Positions 2,508 through 21,529 of a stretch of DNA of 64,000 nt are shown here, in pieces (the stretch's first letter is position 1; the number at the start of each line of letters is the position of its first letter). Origin of the DNA: Candidatus Latescibacterota bacterium (GTDB taxonomy: Bacteria; Latescibacterota; UBA2968; GCA-2709665); assembly GCA_965248435.1 (NCBI GenBank), contig OZ252100.1:992001-1056000 (forward strand), written 5' to 3'. The notes below the pieces were generated by a model. That model did not search any database and had not been told where the DNA came from. It saw only the letters and a list, made by a program, of their open reading frames with translations. The translations under genes were made by a program, and so were the position numbers.

Positions 2508-2960
2508 TCAGTCGAGTTGACGATAGGCTATAATCTCATCCCATCCATCGAACTCCATCTTCGCCTCAACTTTGAAACCTTGCTTCTCATAGAACTCTCG
2601 AGCATTTCCGTCCTCTGCAAGAAAGCCGACGCACAGTCTCTTCGCCGTCGGGAGACGCTCCTTTAATAGTTCGATGGCCAATTGCAGTGCTTCGCGAGCG
2701 TATCCCCTTCTCTGATGCGCCCGATCAATCATGAAACCCCAGAGATCCGGCTCCTCTCGATTCTGCTCCCACACTTTGACAAACCCAACCGGCTTATCAT
2801 CTGCGTAGATCACTTTGAACCAGGCGTCGTCCTCGTAGGTCCCGCGAGCGATCATGTGAGCAACCGTTGGCACAAAGCGCTCCTGCTCCGGTGAGACATG
2901 GAGATTCAGTACTTTCTGGATGTTCTTTTGTGTGACATCTCTGAGACTAATCGTGGGCAT
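2508..2960 (-). CDS. GNAT N-acetyltransferase (spermidine acetyltransferase-like)
   Basis: FMIDRAHQRRGYA acetyl-CoA motif; NAREFYEKQGF. Confidence 0.9.
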   Translation of the reverse strand: MPTISLRDVTQKNIQKVLNLHVSPEQERFVPTVAHMIARGTYEDDAWFKVIYADDKPVGFVKVWEQNREEPDLWGFMIDRAHQRRGYAREALQLAIELLKERLPTAKRLCVGFLAEDGNAREFYEKQGFKVEAKMEFDGWDEIIAYRQLD

Positions 2961-2989
2961 TAGGAGATACCGTTCAATCGAATGATCTC

Positions 2990-3412
2990 CTACAGTGGAG
3001 TAGCATTATCGGCTTCCGTAAGACTGACAATCTCGAATCTCGTATTCTCCGGGCCTCGAAAGAATACCGCATAGTAATCACCGCTATATTCAGGGCACTC
3101 TTCCGGACCATCTGTGATTTCGATGTTGCGGTCCCTAGCCCAGACTGCAAATCTTTCTACTTCGTCGCGGCTCCGGGCGGTGAAGGCAATGTGTTGCAGA
3201 GCACCTGGGGGTGAGCCTGATTCGGCCTTTCTCAAATAGATACGCGAACCTCTACCCTTCCAACCTGCAATGGCTTCGTGTGTTCTCTCTTTGGTCATAC
3301 ACAGGAATTCAACCAACAGATCGTCAAAGAATTGCTCGGCCTTTTCTGGCTCCTGGAGCCCCAAACCTATGTGGTGAATTACTGAATTGATCATTTGATT
3401 CCCTCTTGTCAC
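2990..3412 (-). CDS. VOC/glyoxalase family protein
   Basis: IHHIGL, HIAF, YYAVFFRGPEN.RFEIV; true start may be ATG 3394. Confidence 0.85.
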   Translation of the reverse strand: MTRGNQMINSVIHHIGLGLQEPEKAEQFFDDLLVEFLCMTKERTHEAIAGWKGRGSRIYLRKAESGSPPGALQHIAFTARSRDEVERFAVWARDRNIEITDGPEECPEYSGDYYAVFFRGPENTRFEIVSLTEADNATPL

Positions 3413-8697: not shown

Positions 8698-9441
8698 TCA
8701 GGGTATTTTGAATACGAACAGGTCTACGGGCTCGAGGATCGGCCCGTCGGGCTGGGAATCCTCATCTCTTGCCATCGCCTCCAGTCCTTCTTCGAACTCT
8801 GAATCAGTGATGCTCGCCAGATCCGACAGAGCCCGTTGAGCAAGTTTTTCTCTGTACTCGTTGAATGATCCTGCGAATACCTGATTAATCACTGTGTGGT
8901 CAACTAGACTAAATCCATTCGCTTGAATGGTCCCGATAAGCTCCGATTTTCCAGGCAGCATTTTCTTTCCCACACGTCGGGCACTTGGAAAATACTTCAG
9001 ATACGGCACGCGATCATGCAGATCCAGGGTTGAGTTCCGGATACATAGCTTGCCACCTGCTCTGAGCACCCGGAACCACTCACGCGTCGCTTCGATCGGC
9101 TCAGTGAGGTGATGGAACACCATTGAGAGAAAGACTAAGTCAGATGAATCGTCTCTGATGGGGACAGCGTGAGTGTCTCCTCTGATAAATCTCACATTAT
9201 TTCCATCCGATCTGGCTTGGCTAAGCATTCTAAAGGAGGGATCGATCCCAATGAGCCTTGCGTTGAACCTTTCGGCAAGGGCATCAGAGAAGCGTCCTGT
9301 CCCACATCCAACATCTACAATACGCCTGACTGGTCCCACGATCAGATCTGCAATCGCATCCAGCCAGATCCTCAGTGTGGCTTCGGGGAGCTGCCTCGCC
9401 TTTACATAGGTGGCAGGTATGTCAGTGCGGTCGTATTCCAA
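8698..9441 (-). CDS. Class I SAM-dependent methyltransferase
   Basis: VDVGCGTG, MVFHHL, RVLRAGG. Confidence 0.9.
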   Translation of the reverse strand: MEYDRTDIPATYVKARQLPEATLRIWLDAIADLIVGPVRRIVDVGCGTGRFSDALAERFNARLIGIDPSFRMLSQARSDGNNVRFIRGDTHAVPIRDDSSDLVFLSMVFHHLTEPIEATREWFRVLRAGGKLCIRNSTLDLHDRVPYLKYFPSARRVGKKMLPGKSELIGTIQANGFSLVDHTVINQVFAGSFNEYREKLAQRALSDLASITDSEFEEGLEAMARDEDSQPDGPILEPVDLFVFKIP

Positions 9442-13008: not shown

Positions 13009-13752
13009 TCAGTTCTTCCTCGCGGTAACTACCAATCTACTTCCTTCTCTCCCATACTCCCTGCCATCGAAACCCCCATACAGCTTAATCTCTTTAAATC
13101 CCACCTGCCCAAGACGGTCTTTCATCTCCTGCCCAGAATACACGGCAGTTGAAAACTTGAAACTGTGGGTTTGGCCATCCTTTATCACGATCCACTCGTT
13201 CCGAATCCGAGTCCAATCTTTAATCACCTCATGACGTTGAATCCAAAGGGTGCCATCTTCTAGTTCAGTTGAGCTTGTTGGCTGAAACACTTTGGCCAAC
13301 CACTCTTTGCTAACTACGTCGATCACACAAGAACCATCCGCCCTCAGATTGCAGTAGATATTATCCAGAACTTTCAGATTCTCCTCTTCCTTGTCAAAAT
13401 ATCCAAACGAGGTGAACAGGTTCAATACCAGGTCATAACTGTCCTCGCGGACAAACCTCCGCATGTCTTCCAAGATCCATTCAACCTGCACTTTCTCAGC
13501 AACCGCCCTTTCGCGTGCTTTTTCCAATAGATACGGCGTGAGGTCTACTGCTGTTACGTCCAGCCCTCTATGGGCTAACACCACAGAGTGCCTCCCCGGG
13601 CCGCAGCAGAGGTCTAGAACAGAATGACCTTCGAAATTCACCAGTTTCAGAACCTTCTCGACCTGTTCTTCTGCCTGTGCAAATCTCTTGCTTGGAAACA
13701 TGAGCGGATACATCGTAATCCAAAAAGATTCATCTTCAAACCAGTCAGTCAT
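13009..13752 (-). CDS. Class I SAM-dependent methyltransferase
   Basis: VLDLCCGPGRH; NLFTSFGYF. Confidence 0.92.
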   Translation of the reverse strand: MTDWFEDESFWITMYPLMFPSKRFAQAEEQVEKVLKLVNFEGHSVLDLCCGPGRHSVVLAHRGLDVTAVDLTPYLLEKARERAVAEKVQVEWILEDMRRFVREDSYDLVLNLFTSFGYFDKEEENLKVLDNIYCNLRADGSCVIDVVSKEWLAKVFQPTSSTELEDGTLWIQRHEVIKDWTRIRNEWIVIKDGQTHSFKFSTAVYSGQEMKDRLGQVGFKEIKLYGGFDGREYGREGSRLVVTARKN

Positions 13753-14376: not shown

Positions 14377-14796
14377 CTACAAAAGTTTCCTGAAGTAGGT
14401 AGCGGACTCTTCATATCCGATTGCTTTATAGAAGTCTTCAGCTCTGCGTGTAGCCAATGCAATCAGCCTTGAGTCCCTTTCCTTAGCTTTTTGTTCAATC
14501 ATTACTACAAGCTCTCTGCCTATTCCTTGGCCTCGGAACTCATCCTCCACAAAAAGCTCCTCGATCCAGGTCACGATCCCATTCGCGAAAAAGGTCAGGT
14601 GGTGGAATGCGAGAACATACCCGACCGGTGAGCTGCCCCGTTCCGCTACTAGAAGGTCAGCGTTTGGATCTGCTAGAACATCTTCAATCGATTTGACGAA
14701 TGAACCTGTTCGTGTTTCGAAGCTTGAGGCGAACTTTCTAACCAAAACGAGCAGTAAGTCCCTGTCATCGCTCTGGGCTTCTCTAATACCAACCAT
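14377..14796 (-). CDS. GNAT N-acetyltransferase
   Basis: ELFVEDEFRGQGIG; FYKAIGY. Confidence 0.9.
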   Translation of the reverse strand: MVGIREAQSDDRDLLLVLVRKFASSFETRTGSFVKSIEDVLADPNADLLVAERGSSPVGYVLAFHHLTFFANGIVTWIEELFVEDEFRGQGIGRELVVMIEQKAKERDSRLIALATRRAEDFYKAIGYEESATYFRKLL

Positions 14797-14819
14797 TCTG
14801 ATTCCAACGTGAAAACGTG

Positions 14820-14861
14820 AAAAAGAAAAAACCCGCGGTCGAGAGGTCTCAACGGCGGGTC
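14820..14861 (-). terminator. Intrinsic terminator just upstream of the 21-gene array
   Basis: Minus strand ACCCGC-C-GTTGAG acct CTCGAC-C-GCGGGT followed by TTTTTCTTTT. Confidence 0.75.
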
Positions 14862-14889
14862 AGGTTCTGGCGCAAGGTGTCTTGCTCAA

Positions 14890-15028
14890 GGCCACAAATG
14901 ATCCCGCCGCTTCATCTTAAGGGAATGCCAGTTGATAGCGGCATGGGTTTCTACCTGCTTATTCGAACGGGCAGGTCCCTCAGTCAGTTCGATTGGGAAA
15001 CATGAAGGTCGGCGGGTGATCATTGGCT
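14890..15028. ncRNA. Unidentified structured RNA element (long closing stem plus three internal hairpins)
   Basis: AATGATC-CCGCCG-CTTCAT pairs with ATGAAG-CGGCGG-GATCATT; inner hairpins ATGCC/GGCAT, ACCTGC/GCAGGT, CTCAGTC/GATTGGG; no convincing ORF. Confidence 0.5.
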
Positions 15029-15206
15029 ATTTACCTATTACGATGATTAGAGATGTGCATCCAACTGATAAGAATATATAAACTGGCACCCGTTGGAGTC
15101 AAGATCTTTCTGTTTGTTGGTCACGAATGCTACTCTGACTCCGTGGCTTTCCTCCGGCGATTTAAGTGGCCGGGGTCTGCAGACGATTGCACACAAAAGA
15201 GGTTCA

Positions 15207-16577
15207 CTACTTCTCAGGCTTCTTATCGGCCAATGTAGCCTCTACTATTGCCGACAGATTACCTCTCAGCTCGGGTCCGTTGTTTATTAATACTCTCCCA
15301 TCACGAGAAATTAGTACATAGTGAGGAATCCATGACACGTTGAAATGATTTACCAGGTCCTCAGAATAAGCCTGGTTCCAGCTTACTTCCTTTCTCTGCA
15401 GAAATTCCCGATAACTTCCCTCTCTCGCTCTCTCTTTCGCGCTCAAAACACCGATTATTTCGAATCCTTCTCCTCTAAATTTCTCATAGACTTCTGAAAG
15501 CTTTGGCAGGTCTTCCAAGCAGGGGCCACACCAAATTGCCCAGAAGTCCAGCAGGGTCACCTTGCCATGAAAGTCACTCAGTTCTACGGTTGTTCCATCA
15601 AATTTCGTTAGGGAAAAATTGGGAACCTTTGCCCCGCTTTGCAACATAGCCAAATCTACAGACTTGCTTTCTTGCTGTTTGCCTCTCTTTCTTTCCAACA
15701 GAACGGTCCTGCCATCAGGTGAAGCATATGCAAGTTGCAGAATCTCATCGAAAATCTGGAATGGCCGATCGTGCCTGAAGGCCTCCCAATTCCCAAAAGT
15801 TCCATCACCATCGAAATCCACGCAAACCGACACCATGTCAAGCAGGTCGTATGTCGCCGGATGCCCATTTGTACTAAGCGCAACAGCCAGTTCCTTTCCA
15901 TTTACAGTAATAACACCCCTACGGTACTCGGCGACCTGCCCCTTATATACAGTGCGTCCCTGCCTATAGTTTTCCAATCTAAACATCCTGAAGTCGACTG
16001 TATCTGATCTCACTACACCTCTATCTAAGTATTCGAATTGAGCCTGAGACTGTGCCTGGCTCACTCCGACTCGTTCGTGGTCAGCCCAGCTTAGCATCTT
16101 TTCGTTTGCAAGATCTTCATCATTGTTAGTGTCGATGATCAAGAACTCTTCACCCCCGCTAGTGCCCACGACGAAATCAATCATGCTATCGACGCCTGAA
16201 CCTAGCGGATAATCAGGCCCGAGACGGTACAGGGTGCTGGTCCTTAGGTTCCTCCGTGCAGCCTCATCAAGATGTTGAAAGTGTACTGGACGCTCCGGCG
16301 TCTTGTAAATATCGACTAACTCCTCTTTGCCGCTCAACTCAGAGTAGCCATAGTATTCCACAAGAAAGCCCTGTGGCATACCCACGAGGTCGTGAAAGGG
16401 CTCCTTGCCAATTCGACCGATGTCTTCAAAATCGTCAAATCCGCCGATGAACAGCGAAGTATCACTGGCTGCGTGCAATTTCACTTCTAGATACTCTGGT
16501 GGTTGTGCGTTACTGAAAGTTACTAAGAAGAGGATGACCGACGGAATCTTCAGAAAGGATCTATGTGTAAACGCCAT
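15207..16577 (-). CDS. Secreted TlpA-family thiol-disulfide oxidoreductase with a long N-terminal extension
   Basis: Signal-like N-terminus; LLDFWAIWCGPC; WIPHYVLISRDG; start after GGAGG. Confidence 0.85.
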   Translation of the reverse strand: MAFTHRSFLKIPSVILFLVTFSNAQPPEYLEVKLHAASDTSLFIGGFDDFEDIGRIGKEPFHDLVGMPQGFLVEYYGYSELSGKEELVDIYKTPERPVHFQHLDEAARRNLRTSTLYRLGPDYPLGSGVDSMIDFVVGTSGGEEFLIIDTNNDEDLANEKMLSWADHERVGVSQAQSQAQFEYLDRGVVRSDTVDFRMFRLENYRQGRTVYKGQVAEYRRGVITVNGKELAVALSTNGHPATYDLLDMVSVCVDFDGDGTFGNWEAFRHDRPFQIFDEILQLAYASPDGRTVLLERKRGKQQESKSVDLAMLQSGAKVPNFSLTKFDGTTVELSDFHGKVTLLDFWAIWCGPCLEDLPKLSEVYEKFRGEGFEIIGVLSAKERAREGSYREFLQRKEVSWNQAYSEDLVNHFNVSWIPHYVLISRDGRVLINNGPELRGNLSAIVEATLADKKPEK

Positions 16578-16750
16578 CTTAACCTCCACTATTCGTTGGA
16601 CGATTCGAATGCCCAATTAGAGACGGTTTCCTGCAGCGAGCAATCGTGTCCCGTGGTCAAACGGAAAGTTAAGGAGATTTAATGGAGTCTTAGTAAAGAA
16701 AAGGAACCCGCTGGTCGGAGGCAGCAGGGGAGGGGAAAGATCTTGGTCAA

Positions 16751-17710
16751 TCACACTTTCTTTGGTCGCTTTGGGCGCGATCTTCCACTGCTATAAATAG
16801 GATACTCGTAGCCCTTCAGAACGTTATCGACTGTATCGTTCTGCCCAGACCCGGCCCGAGGTCGTCGAACAGTCTGCCTCTTTCTATGCTTACTGGCCCT
16901 TTCAAGGGCCGCCTTCGCCTTCCCGAATACGACTCGGCTGATGATGGGCTCGTGTTCCCCTTTCACCTTGAGGTCAGCATGCCGGACCACACCAATATGG
17001 AAGTCATTGGTGAGCATATCGTGTAGGGCCTGCCAAGAGAACGGCTTCCCCTTCCGGTTCTTGACGTCCATGATCTTGAGATATCGTTCGAGTGCCCTGA
17101 TTTGCCCGACCTTCAGGAAGGCCCTGAAGATCTTCTTCACCTGGGGGGCCTCTTCAGGATGGGGCTCGATGAATTTCTGAATGTTCCTTCCATCTACCTT
17201 TGTTGCCCACATGTAGCCGTATGGGGCCTCACCACAGGGCTTGAGGCCCTTCAGGGCCCTTGCCCGTCTGCCACGTTTTAGACGCTGAGCGATCACTAGC
17301 CTCTCCCAGGCATTGAGCAGCCCGATCATCCCACTCACCAGAAACTGGTTCGGGTCGTTTTCTGAGTAAATCGTGAAAGTGGGCTCATCGACAGCCCTGA
17401 TATCTTTCTTAACGTCTCTCACCGCCTTGATGATCATGGCCTGGGGATAGATATCTCTCCAGAGCCTAGAGGTCGAAGCGGTGACGATATAGTCGATATC
17501 GTTCAGATTCCCGAGCATCGCCTCAAGCCTCTCCCTTTCGAGGCTCGCCCCCGAAACAGCTTCATCGACGTATTCCTCGAGAACCCTGATCTGGTTGGCC
17601 GCGCAGTAATCTCTGCAGAGCCTGAGTTGAACATCGAGGCCCTGACCATCGAGCTGGGTCCCTGTTGAGACCCTGGCGTAGATATGAGCCCGCTTCTTTC
17701 GTTGTGCCAT
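16751..17710 (-). CDS. Serine recombinase (resolvase catalytic domain plus recombinase DNA-binding domain)
   Basis: IYARVST catalytic Ser, DEAVSGA, SRLWRD, ER..I.QRL..GR, GEAPYGY, HEPIISR; the ORF track start at 17749 is probably too far upstream. Confidence 0.92.
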   Translation of the reverse strand: MAQRKKRAHIYARVSTGTQLDGQGLDVQLRLCRDYCAANQIRVLEEYVDEAVSGASLERERLEAMLGNLNDIDYIVTASTSRLWRDIYPQAMIIKAVRDVKKDIRAVDEPTFTIYSENDPNQFLVSGMIGLLNAWERLVIAQRLKRGRRARALKGLKPCGEAPYGYMWATKVDGRNIQKFIEPHPEEAPQVKKIFRAFLKVGQIRALERYLKIMDVKNRKGKPFSWQALHDMLTNDFHIGVVRHADLKVKGEHEPIISRVVFGKAKAALERASKHRKRQTVRRPRAGSGQNDTVDNVLKGYEYPIYSSGRSRPKRPKKV

Positions 17711-17755
17711 CTGCCAATTTCCTTGTAACATTCTGTTGCCATTAACCACTTGTCG

Positions 17756-19225: not shown

Positions 19226-21343
19226 TTAACCGTTAGTGGCAGCGCTCCATACAGAAACCCGGCTGTTACTTATCTGGGAGTAAAGATACTCGAAGTAGTT
19301 GATGTCAATCTTACGCCAACTCACAATACCACGAAGATTACCGCCGGGCTGGTAGGTAAGTAAGTCGTCTACCCTGGACGCGATTACAATCCGCTGATCC
19401 TTCTCGCCAACGAATGCAAAGTCCCAGCCTTGGTAGTCAGCCAGCTCTCCGCCAAGCATATCTAGACTGAACGCCCATAGCTTAAGCCTGGATGGGGACC
19501 CCGCAAGGAGGTGCTCGACCTGCGTCTTATATGAATCGACTGTTTCTTGCAGTTGGTCACGAGTATCAAAGATTATAGTTCGATGGATCCAAAGAGCATT
19601 GGAAAGCGGTTTGAGTGCAGAATTCTCTTCGAGGGCTAATAGCTGCTCCAAGTATTTGGGTTGGCAGACCGCACGGACCGGGCTATTGCTAAACGCGTGT
19701 GATGTTAAACCAAATACGTCCATGCATTCCACGCGGCCAGAACAAATGTCTTGAAACATGGTGACGCAATCCTGGATCTCATAATACTTCTCTAGCTGTT
19801 GCGGTATCGGAGCCAAATCTGGTTCACTAATTCTTCTCCATCCCGCACTCATGTCGGATGCGCCGATTGTAGACGGGCGACGTGCTATTTCGTCTAGAAT
19901 ATAGGGAGGAAATGTATCTTCATCACCTGGATACATCTGTTTCGTGTCGACACCAACAGAATAATGATTCAGAGCGAACAAGCCATCGTACTTAAGGGAT
20001 TCTGGGAGCGAAACTAACGACTGATAACACTCTGGGCACAATCCAGTTGGAATGTTCTGACGGACAATTGCCCAGACTTCACTGCCACGGTGACTCAGAG
20101 ATTCTATTTTGAGGGATCGAATATTCTTAACCGCAACTCGCTTTCTCTCTAGCTCCTCGGTCACCAACTTAGCGCCGCCCGACAGCACCCCAAAGAGCTT
20201 GGACACAAAGCCAACCTGTTTAACCAGGCCAAGTTTTTCCTCAATGTCCCTGGTCTCATTGACACTGAATTCTGAAGTACCGCCAACTTCGTGAGTCAAT
20301 CGCTGAATGATGCGACCATGTATCAGGGGACGTTCCTCATTATCGCTCAACGGCCTTTTCGTGAAATACAAAGCGACTGAATGACCGAACTTTCCAAAAA
20401 TCGATGACAGGCTGAAAAGAAGTGCACTCCCCACTAGAATCGGCAGAACAATTAGGATCAACCAAACGGAGTCAGTACTGGTGAGAAGTGAATAGAGGTC
20501 ATTTGGGTGGGTAACTGGTCTTGCTGCGAGAAAATCGATTCCAACGACATAGAACTTGTTACGAGCAATGGGAATCTTCTTGTAAAGCGTTCGAACCGCC
20601 GAGATTGAGCTCGTAAAGTCGTCGTACAGGAAGGTCAAGCCCATACTTTCGGGGATCTCTTGGCGATCGTCGGATTTTCCAGTTGCGGTCTTGTACCAGG
20701 GTCTGGTTCTTGGGTCGTACGGTACGTCGGAATTTCTCCAGAGGTCACTATTCCCTGGCCAAACGACAAACGTGCCGTTTTGTGATGCAATATACACCCA
20801 CGCTATTTGCAGAGAAGGAAAGGCTTCTTTGATGTTATCATCTAGACGAAGAATCTCGGCCATGCGATTCGAGTAGGCTGAGAACGACCGAGTTTGGGAC
20901 TCTTCCACTAGAAACCTTCTGCGTATCGCAGTGATGAACTGTGCAAACCTCCCGAGTTCATCATCAACATCATCGCCCTCACGCTGCCTCACGTAGGTAC
21001 CGAATTGATAGTTGACATCGATGGCCTGGAAATCAGAAGCAGTGGAATTCCAAGTGACATCTCCGTCAGCCACTTCCCAGCTTTGATCGCTCGCTCGTAT
21101 ATCTTTCTGCCAGCCGTCGACAGCGGTCTTTCTTACATCTAAAGTAAAGTCGTCGATGGCACTAGACAAACCGTCAAAGAGCGACATATCCGACCAGGCG
21201 TTGTTGTGCCATAACCAAAGCCTATCGGCTTGGCGAACGTATCCCTGGAGCGACACCAGTAAAAAAAACAGAAATACAAGGATAGACCCAGTCGCCGAGA
21301 GCCTCAAAATTTTCCGCCTGGCCACCCTTCGCACTCTATCCAT
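19226..21343 (-). CDS. Membrane-anchored dCache sensor protein with an unrecognised cytoplasmic domain
   Basis: TM helix; WVYIASQNGTFVVWPG, YDPRTRPWYK, LYDD, VVGIDF; second TM helix; start after AAGGAG. Confidence 0.75.
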   Translation of the reverse strand: MDRVRRVARRKILRLSATGSILVFLFFLLVSLQGYVRQADRLWLWHNNAWSDMSLFDGLSSAIDDFTLDVRKTAVDGWQKDIRASDQSWEVADGDVTWNSTASDFQAIDVNYQFGTYVRQREGDDVDDELGRFAQFITAIRRRFLVEESQTRSFSAYSNRMAEILRLDDNIKEAFPSLQIAWVYIASQNGTFVVWPGNSDLWRNSDVPYDPRTRPWYKTATGKSDDRQEIPESMGLTFLYDDFTSSISAVRTLYKKIPIARNKFYVVGIDFLAARPVTHPNDLYSLLTSTDSVWLILIVLPILVGSALLFSLSSIFGKFGHSVALYFTKRPLSDNEERPLIHGRIIQRLTHEVGGTSEFSVNETRDIEEKLGLVKQVGFVSKLFGVLSGGAKLVTEELERKRVAVKNIRSLKIESLSHRGSEVWAIVRQNIPTGLCPECYQSLVSLPESLKYDGLFALNHYSVGVDTKQMYPGDEDTFPPYILDEIARRPSTIGASDMSAGWRRISEPDLAPIPQQLEKYYEIQDCVTMFQDICSGRVECMDVFGLTSHAFSNSPVRAVCQPKYLEQLLALEENSALKPLSNALWIHRTIIFDTRDQLQETVDSYKTQVEHLLAGSPSRLKLWAFSLDMLGGELADYQGWDFAFVGEKDQRIVIASRVDDLLTYQPGGNLRGIVSWRKIDINYFEYLYSQISNSRVSVWSAATNG

Positions 21344-21529
21344 TGCTGCTCTCCTTTTAAACCTTCTGCATTCGGTTGTTGGCAACTCCGCGTTTACCGT
21401 ACCACTGGTTAACGTAACGGCACTTCGTCGACGCATCTTATGATGAATTCTAAATATCCGATCAATTTAATTGCTGAAACCATACCCTTACTTCTCAACA
21501 TCAAACGTCGCCTCACCAAGGGAAGCTAC

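Follow-up and report, generated by a model that had tools for sequence, protein, structure and literature searches.

In a 64,000-nucleotide (nt) stretch of contig OZ252100.1 from the Candidatus Latescibacterota bacterium assembly GCA_965248435.1 (positions 992,001 to 1,056,000 of the forward strand; this whole stretch is referred to as “the window”, and bare positions are counted from its first letter), the intergenic region flanked by a GNAT acetyltransferase gene (14377-14796, minus strand) and a redoxin-domain gene (15207-16616, minus strand) holds an element that is probably a ribosome-mediated, i.e., leader-peptide, transcription attenuator encoded on the minus strand. A promoter, a Shine-Dalgarno (SD) sequence, a short open reading frame (ORF), a closing stem, an antiterminator and a terminator stand in register there and make up the layout of a leader-peptide attenuator. 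An ORF with an SD sequence, an intrinsic terminator before the first gene and an antiterminator that shares the 5' arm of the terminator are all present in the window, whereas a codon run for the sensed amino acid is absent from the leader there and is seen in relatives of the element that precede ilvB, aspS, asd and genes for ValRS and MetRS. An earlier reading of the same DNA, made from its letters alone (the sequence-only reading), had described a multi-stem RNA ahead of a terminator, in which the strand CGGCGGG could pair with either of two CCCGCCG copies; both this terminator and this choice of partners are indeed found on the minus strand, where they are joined by the promoter (15102-15073) and the ORF (15023-14886), both of which were absent from that reading.

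We infer that transcription starts near 15066, downstream of a sigma-70-type promoter (15073-15102, minus strand) that consists of the -35 hexamer TTGACT (15102-15097), an 18-nt spacer and the -10 hexamer TATATT (15078-15073), and that scores 10/12 in the promoter scan. As the scan found 15 promoter-like sites where 15.6 were expected from shuffles, i.e., no excess, it is weak when taken alone, and the weight, therefore, rests on conservation: TTGAC[TA] opens all six type-1 copies cut out for comparison, a -10-like hexamer (read by eye) lies 17-18 nt past it in each of the six, and the promoter block also aligns among the window, a second copy elsewhere in the same genome (L002) and the first of two leaders preceding an aspS gene of that genome (aspS leader 1). 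A putative SD sequence, AGGU (15033-15036, minus strand), can be read 9 nt 5' of the leader AUG, and its position is taken by GAGGU in L002 and by GGAG in aspS leader 1. The leader ORF itself (14886-15023, minus strand; AUG at 15023, UGA at 14888-14886) has 45 codons before the UGA and reads MITRRPSCFPIELTEGPARSNKQVETHAAINWHSLKMKRRDHLWP.

Four regions of the minus strand could pair with one another in alternative ways. Region 1 (15002-15027), the anti-antiterminator, supplies the closing stem with its 5' arm, covers the start codon and codons 1-8 and has the core CCCGCCG at 15016-15010, while region 2 (14891-14915), which can enter two helices, as 3' arm in the closing stem and as 5' arm in the antiterminator, covers codons 37-45 and has the core CGGCGGG at 14909-14903, read as Arg-Arg-Asp, with the leader UGA sitting 12 nt beyond this core. 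A spacer with the stop UGA and a small hairpin (14860-14890), nearly identical in L002, separates it from region 3 (14848-14859; CCCGCCGUUGAG), the 5' arm of the terminator, whose partner is either region 2 or region 4, and whose first letters (14859-14853) are the second CCCGCCG copy and the start of a 12-pair terminator hairpin. Region 4 (14819-14843) comprises the 3' arm of the terminator (CUCGACCGCGGG, 14843-14832) and the U-tract (UUUUUUCUUUUUC, 14831-14819), the latter ending 22 nt upstream of the GNAT ATG at 14796. The leader RNA made from the promoter at 15102-15073 should, thus, be about 245 nt long, as predicted from the sequence. A separate promoter between the terminator and 14796, which the sequence-only reading had raised as a point to be checked, was not seen, the scan having found no promoter-like site there.

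The proposed switch would follow the four-region logic of 1:2 (closing stem), 2:3 (antiterminator) and 3:4 (terminator). A ribosome keeping pace to the end of the ORF would cover region 2, leaving regions 3 and 4 to form the terminator, and transcription would stop 22 nt before the GNAT gene; a ribosome held inside the ORF would leave region 2 free when region 3 emerges, so that the antiterminator could form and the polymerase could read through into the gene array; and a leader that is not translated would form its closing stem first and would end in termination. The closing stem would also bury the leader start codon. As for the signal, our guess is a general slowing of translation (by ribosome-targeting compounds or starvation), which would fit the drug- and xenobiotic-modifying enzymes encoded behind the leader.

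The long closing stem of the sequence-only reading (15027-15002 with 14915-14891) has a duplex energy of -27.3 kcal/mol, which a single one of 2000 shuffled 5' arms equals, while the terminator hairpin (14859-14832) reaches -20.3 kcal/mol and the alternative duplex of regions 2 and 3 reaches -20.9 kcal/mol. The minus strand of the entire intergenic region (14797-15206) folds with a z-score of -3.17, and none of 100 shuffles folds equally well. On a transcript truncated just past region 3, the fold with the antiterminator (-66.2 kcal/mol) and that with the closing stem (-63.9 kcal/mol) are nearly equal in predicted energy, and the leader RNA would be poised between them. Ribosomes were modelled by equilibrium folding with a masked 29-nt footprint on this truncated transcript, in which region 3 is predicted to be sequestered for P-site codons 1-35 (the single exception being codon 20) and free from codon 36 on, where the ribosome would sit on region 2. 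A rough analysis of other family members, in which the choice of the start codon failed for several rows, the window included, had region 2 pairing with the early codons in many, not all, of the members folded.

Further evidence for the attenuator reading comes from the relatives of the element. BLAST of the window's own genome (G000) returned three places in all, the window included: L002, which is 86% identical over about 300 nt and sits before a MOSC gene and a second array, and L003, a partial match of 76% identity that sits before an archaeal-type non-discriminating aspS, whose product matches the NCBIfam aspartate--tRNA(Asn) ligase model at 488.9 bits (cut-off 353). Two covariance models widened this set: R1, a model of the 3' module built from six copies, which in effect amounts to sequence-profile matching, has 33 matches in 22 of the 53 genomes of the order, and R2, built from 32 sequences, has matches with E<=0.001 in 78 of the 132 class genomes. 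In G000 itself, R2 yields nine matches at E<=0.05, of which we count six as real copies (the window, L002, aspS leaders 1 and 2, an ilvB leader and a shortened copy before a luciferase-like monooxygenase gene). A partial match at C1:1406932-1406967 was not counted as real, and two more were rejected, one (C1:4859489-4859598) being a plain terminator without a leader ORF after an ORF read by eye as pheT-like and the other (C1:2108892-2108983, plus strand) being an opposite-strand echo of aspS leader 1. Two metagenome scans with patterns for the sub-type seen in the window found no stretches.

That the leader is translated is argued by its frame. With an open frame defined as at least 25 open codons upstream of region 2 and a stop within 10 codons downstream of it, 22 of the 27 matches taken from the family have the NGG-CGG frame open, against none and three of the 27 for the other two frames, and two of these three positives are mis-anchored rows (the test took 27 of 32 matches, the remaining five being dropped as the region 2 pattern was not located in them). 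The window and L002 share the same 45-codon frame, and their ORFs differ by 16 substitutions and no indels, whereas the 5' untranslated region and the spacer carry one indel each.

The genes behind the leader, viewed at 82 places (32 + 11 + 39), with matches numbering roughly 180 across the class, tie the family to amino acid sensing, with the qualification that Pfam and NCBIfam checks were made on representatives and that the other downstream genes were assigned by N-terminal likeness. Before ilvB, the gene for the large subunit of acetolactate synthase, the leaders are rich in Val, Leu and Ile (e.g., one ending in YAVVGVVSDLVGVDTGIRWRDCL before its stop); they are of the VVVV type before ValRS-like genes, rich in Lys and Thr before asd, Met-rich and of the MCMMSS type before MetRS genes, and of the Asn/Asp type NNNDDNN before aspS. 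Such codon runs matching the downstream gene are the signature of classical attenuation. Family leaders free of codon runs also occur, and these precede a GNAT gene (G053), ABC ATPase genes (G056, G057 and G115-G117), glyoxalase genes adjoining aspS (several f2 genomes) and MFS transporter genes (G041, G042 and G044). The module common to loci L088-L169 can be written as region 2 GGYGGGAU (Arg-Arg/Trp-Asp) plus the terminator ACCCGCCGUYGAG. In five genomes of one genus (G003, G016, G019, G020 and G021; loci L093-L097), the methyltransferase gene after a leader of the type VVRPV.D.NS.NN..WRIMV (followed by the stop) has been cut to ORFs of ~60-93 residues that keep only the C-terminal motif of the methyltransferase, as if the genes had decayed while the leader stayed intact.

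Both competing helices are kept across the family, which speaks for conservation of the pairing among homologues, a check that had been proposed together with the sequence-only reading. In a covariation alignment of 40 rows, 38 of them distinct (A3; fitted by model), the terminator is paired in 88.2% of cells and the antiterminator in 86.7%, as compared to 31-47% and 35-65%, respectively, for partners displaced by 1-3 columns, and, for either helix, none of 500 shuffles reaches the observed paired fraction or covariation score. At column 92 (region 3), a change of G to A is accompanied by a change of C to U in the region 2 partner and by a change of C to U in the region 4 partner, giving CG 13, UA 10 and UG 4 with region 2 and GC 20 and AU 11 with region 4.

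A likely origin of the window copy can be read from the aspS locus. Two tandem leaders precede the non-discriminating aspS in G000: aspS leader 1 reads MITRRKPRLSSIALMNGAKGFNPDSNPNNYGIQWRDLVLP and is followed by its own terminator, while aspS leader 2 ends in NLNPNPNDDNNPIQRRAGPWFGS before its stop, with another terminator after it. The former is the nearest relative of the sub-type made up by the window copy and L002. With it, the window element aligns at the promoter, the MITRR start, region 2 and the terminator, and we infer from this that the element arose from the leading member of a tandem pair of Asn-sensing leaders in front of a non-discriminating aspS. The whole leader holds two Asn in the window and one in L002, as compared to five in aspS leader 1 of G000; the window copy and L002 have lost the Asn-codon run, and the window leader probably no longer reports on one amino acid. 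G000 also has an AsnRS, a bacterial AspRS and two AsnB-type synthetases, and the leader-regulated aspS is, therefore, regarded as an accessory enzyme.

Tandem leaders of this kind stand before aspS in G000, G001 and G053, and the RRAGP-type aspS leaders are rich in Asn and Asp. The pattern P-I-[RQ]-R-R-A-G-P ends the leader adjoining the non-discriminating aspS in 16 of 17 loci (L009 at ~2850-3330, i.e., G000:C1:2108680-2109200 on the minus strand, and L010-L024), the stretch of the peptide that carries RAGP in aspS leader 2 of G000 being NNNDDNNPIRRRAGP. This leader end occurs in eight distinct nucleotide versions, with Pro, Ala and Gly each using all four of their codons, and it is this synonymous variation from which selection on the RAGP peptide itself is concluded. 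The R-R-A codons of the aspS leader double as an arm of the antiterminator, so an arrested ribosome would sit exactly on region 2, which suggests that attenuation by the aspS leader may involve a ribosome parked on the strand that forms the antiterminator.

A comparison of the window with L002 bears on the stems, as 13 of the 49 pairs of the minimum-energy fold differ between the two. Four of these changed pairs lie in the closing stem, three of which remain paired, as G-U, if read on the minus strand but would turn into C.A mismatches if read on the plus strand, while the outermost is broken; the closing stem and the minus strand are, thus, weakly supported, and the earlier statement that G-U pairs favour the plus strand is not confirmed. 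Nine further changed pairs lie in the inner hairpins, and six of them are broken in L002, so the three inner hairpins of the sequence-only reading, although they do appear in the minimum-energy fold of the window, are not kept in L002, which in our view speaks against an aptamer. Between the window and L002, conservation is far higher in the 3' half of the element (~14860-14930) than over the 5' half of the ORF. A short contig from sequencing run X4 carries an extra T behind 14859, and since L002 has an extra base at the same spot, this contig is taken to be the paralogue L002.

Several observations weigh against the window element being a working leader-peptide attenuator. The element is known here from sequence and folding; among the sequencing runs that contain the region, none is recorded as RNA, and four of them (X1-X4, from one sample) give long, DNA-like contigs. 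The SD sequence of the window (AGGU) is weak, the codon analysis found neither a sensing-codon run nor a rare-codon cluster in the window leader, and the latter offers no evident ribosome-stalling feature. Furthermore, 13 of the 16 changes between the window and L002 ORFs are non-synonymous and three are synonymous (an eye count on two sequences, with little power); since 13 of 16 alter the amino acid, the sequence of the leader peptide does not appear to be under visible selection in the sub-type seen in the window. The third copy of the window type in G000 (C1:2316428-2316544, i.e., L119:2429-2545 on the minus strand), which precedes the luciferase-like monooxygenase gene, keeps region 2, the spacer and the terminator and has no full ORF. 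Support for the closing stem is thin, as three of four changed pairs would be kept by chance about 1 time in 12 by our own estimate, and much of the covariation across the family stems from one sub-family, in which the UA/AU state of column 92 is mainly found, and may reflect a small number of events. Finally, in the full-length equilibrium model, antitermination resulted, among the stalls tested, only from those at codons 6 and 9, whereas a stall with the P site at codon 12 or beyond lets region 1 re-form the closing stem and the terminator; because these later stalls terminate, the switch would need kinetics, early stalling or queued ribosomes. Full-length masked folding predicts the terminator at almost all ribosome positions because it is so stable.

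The first alternative to be weighed is that the window copy is a decayed duplicate of an Asn leader, which now provides a promoter and a leaky constitutive terminator giving a low basal level of the array, and we regard this as unlikely. The loss of the Asn run (two and one Asn, respectively, against five), the neutral-looking pattern of peptide substitutions and the shortened third copy of G000 without an ORF would all fit it; however, the window and L002 keep the promoter, the SD sequence, the ORF length, the closing stem, the antiterminator and the terminator at 86% identity, and leaders free of codon runs precede GNAT, ABC, MFS and glyoxalase genes in other genera too.

A riboswitch or another factor-binding leader, in which the closing stem would enclose an aptamer for a metabolite, a protein or a tRNA and the ORF would be incidental, seems to us quite improbable, and with it half of the earlier “riboswitch or attenuator” suggestion: a cis element with a terminator and an alternative pairing does head an array on the same strand, but its interior is unconserved while the frame of its ORF is kept. 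The strand shared by the closing stem and the terminator, the better conservation of the 3' half and the absence of a codon run from the window leader would suit a riboswitch, whereas the inner-hairpin pairs broken in L002, the conservation of the ORF frame across the family and the plain amino-acid leader peptides among the relatives speak against one. So does the outcome of the Rfam 15 search, which gave no matches at the gathering score in the whole window, in agreement with the statement of the sequence-only reading that no known family is matched; at E<=10, the interval 14600-15400 has three chance-level matches, the best being sX11 at 14.3 bits (cut-off 70), and T-box has no Rfam match even at this threshold. 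The element does resemble terminator riboswitches and the T-box in that a strand of the closing stem competes with a terminator arm and in that one relative precedes an aminoacyl-tRNA synthetase gene, and differs from them in having no conserved aptamer core, no Rfam match and a conserved ORF.

It is very unlikely that the element is an independent gene, whether for a small RNA of ~245 nt that acts in trans or for a functional protein of 45 residues. Its own promoter and strong terminator would be in line with such a gene, and terminated leader RNAs do act in trans in some bacteria; however, the terminator lies 22 nt before a co-oriented gene with no promoter-like site in the gap, the pairing alternative to the terminator arm covaries, and the peptide is not conserved between the paralogues. 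Least credible of all are an antisense RNA from the plus strand and an IS110/IS1111-type non-coding end, both put forward earlier, since the plus strand, although it also folds (-134.4 kcal/mol), has a z-score of only -1.86 against the -3.17 of the minus strand, with 5 of 100 shuffles as good, the substitutions in L002 give C.A mismatches on it, the promoter, the SD sequence and the U-tract are all on the minus strand, all copies share one orientation relative to the downstream gene, and the neighbours of the window copy and of the other copies scanned (redoxin-domain, GNAT, aspS, MOSC, ilvB and luciferase-like genes) contain no transposase domain, the serine recombinase at 16751-17749 belonging to a family other than the IS110/IS1111 DEDD transposases. 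Two further candidates were ruled out as well: a repeat of the miniature inverted-repeat transposable element or repetitive extragenic palindrome type, as the copies are always co-oriented before genes and come with a promoter and an ORF, and integron cassettes, as the intergenic gaps of the array are too short for attC sites.

Turning to what the attenuator would control, the first gene behind the leader (14377-14796, minus strand) encodes a GNAT acetyltransferase of 139 aa and opens a run of 11 tightly packed genes from 14796 down to 7901, after which there is a gap of 169 nt; the ten genes after the first GNAT encode GNATs, S-adenosylmethionine (SAM) methyltransferases and an SDR (three of the ten were not family-scanned). 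The arrays behind the window copy and L002 both hold GNATs, SAM methyltransferases and glyoxalase-family proteins, the one at L002 comprising methyltransferases, a PhzF-like protein, an AAC(3)-family Antibiotic_NAT protein, a GNAT and a glyoxalase. The gene for the AAC(3)-family aminoglycoside N-acetyltransferase lies at L120:4077-4898 (G000:C1, minus strand), and its product matches Pfam Antibiotic_NAT at 313.8 bits; the first GNAT of the window falls far under every NCBIfam resistance cut-off. One methyltransferase pair (window 8698-9441 and L120:287-1045) is 96.7% identical at the protein level and a second (window 13009-13752 and L120:3265-4023) is 56% identical, and parts of the two arrays have been duplicated recently.

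In a search that left out the window's own genome, the first GNAT has at least 60 related loci, the best of which, in named genomes, are in Paenibacillus and other Firmicutes (45-54% identity), a distribution that hints at horizontal acquisition of the array genes. Just upstream of the redoxin gene, there is a serine recombinase of 332 residues with Resolvase and Recombinase domains (16751-17749) and, beside it, a protein of 736 residues without a Pfam match (19226-21436), and these two may mark the edge of an integrated element. Upstream of L002 lies a 1349-residue ORF (L120:7687-11736) with a thioredoxin-like C-terminal part, to which the 469-residue redoxin protein of the window is 24% identical, and this ORF is preceded by one of 132 residues (L120:11733-12131), whose N-terminus resembles BlaI/CopY repressors by eye only.

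Taken one step further, the window copy and L002 could be translation-stress sensors derived from an Asn-sensing aspS leader that, with the Asn codons gone, respond to any slowing of elongation (e.g., by natural products that target the ribosome) and switch on two paralogous batteries of drug-modifying enzymes, which we put forward as a tentative proposal.

The mechanism itself is textbook leader-peptide attenuation and is not new. The attenuators of Enterobacteria (trpL, hisL, ivbL/ilvL, thrL, pheL and pheM) have a translated leader, the 1:2/2:3/3:4 logic and a terminator before the first gene, and the element shares with them its four regions and its short leader, with relatives before ilvB, asd, aspS, ValRS and MetRS carrying the matching codon runs. 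Unlike them, the window copy has no regulatory codon run, its region 1 lies at the start of the ORF, AUG included, and does not overlap sensor codons, its ORF extends across region 2, GNAT and methyltransferase genes follow it instead of a biosynthetic pathway, and no Rfam leader family matches it. A search of open-access text, judged by titles and the openings of abstracts, found no paper on this leader family, the aspS leaders included.

Leader attenuators that respond to antibiotics offer another comparison. In Bacillus subtilis yxjB with tylosin (PMC6851288), Escherichia coli toiL before topAI-yjhQ (PMC12121999) and streptococcal msrD (PMC10314930), a ribosome stalled on an upstream ORF reportedly refolds the leader RNA and drug-related genes are turned on. 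The window element is like such systems in its short upstream ORF and in arrays predicted from sequence to encode GNATs, methyltransferases, glyoxalase-family proteins and an AAC(3), and unlike them in that no known stalling motif is recognised in its leader, in that lineage and sequences are unrelated, and in that it visibly descends from an amino-acid-sensing leader. Arrest peptides of the SecM, ApdA and ApdP kind are reported to carry RAG/P or RAP/P modules (PMC10951299). The likeness, which is one of sequence, lies in aspS leader 2, a homologue of the window leader, ending in P-I-[RQ]-R-R-A-G-P and in the window having the same CGG-CGG codons in frame; the window leader, however, ends in RRDHLWP before its stop, which is not RAGP and lacks the arrest motif, and the aspS leaders precede an aminoacyl-tRNA synthetase and not secretion machinery.

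What these leaders mean for the class is, first of all, that one common attenuator module serves many of its operons, and a model of this module would improve the annotation of its genomes. The aspS leader joins an Asn/Asp run to RRAGP, the arrest module of SecM, which has so far been discussed for secretion monitors. The window copy, in turn, is a sensor leader that has been re-used, with the parts of the RNA switch of an Asn leader kept, the Asn codons lost and arrays of the detoxification type behind it, so that a possible shift from sensing an amino acid to sensing drugs can be put to the test. If the tentative proposal of translation-stress sensing were true, it would point to an inducible resistance regulon of several enzymes in a class of bacteria that has been little studied, and the evolutionary route by which an attenuator for amino acids became one for drugs would be visible.

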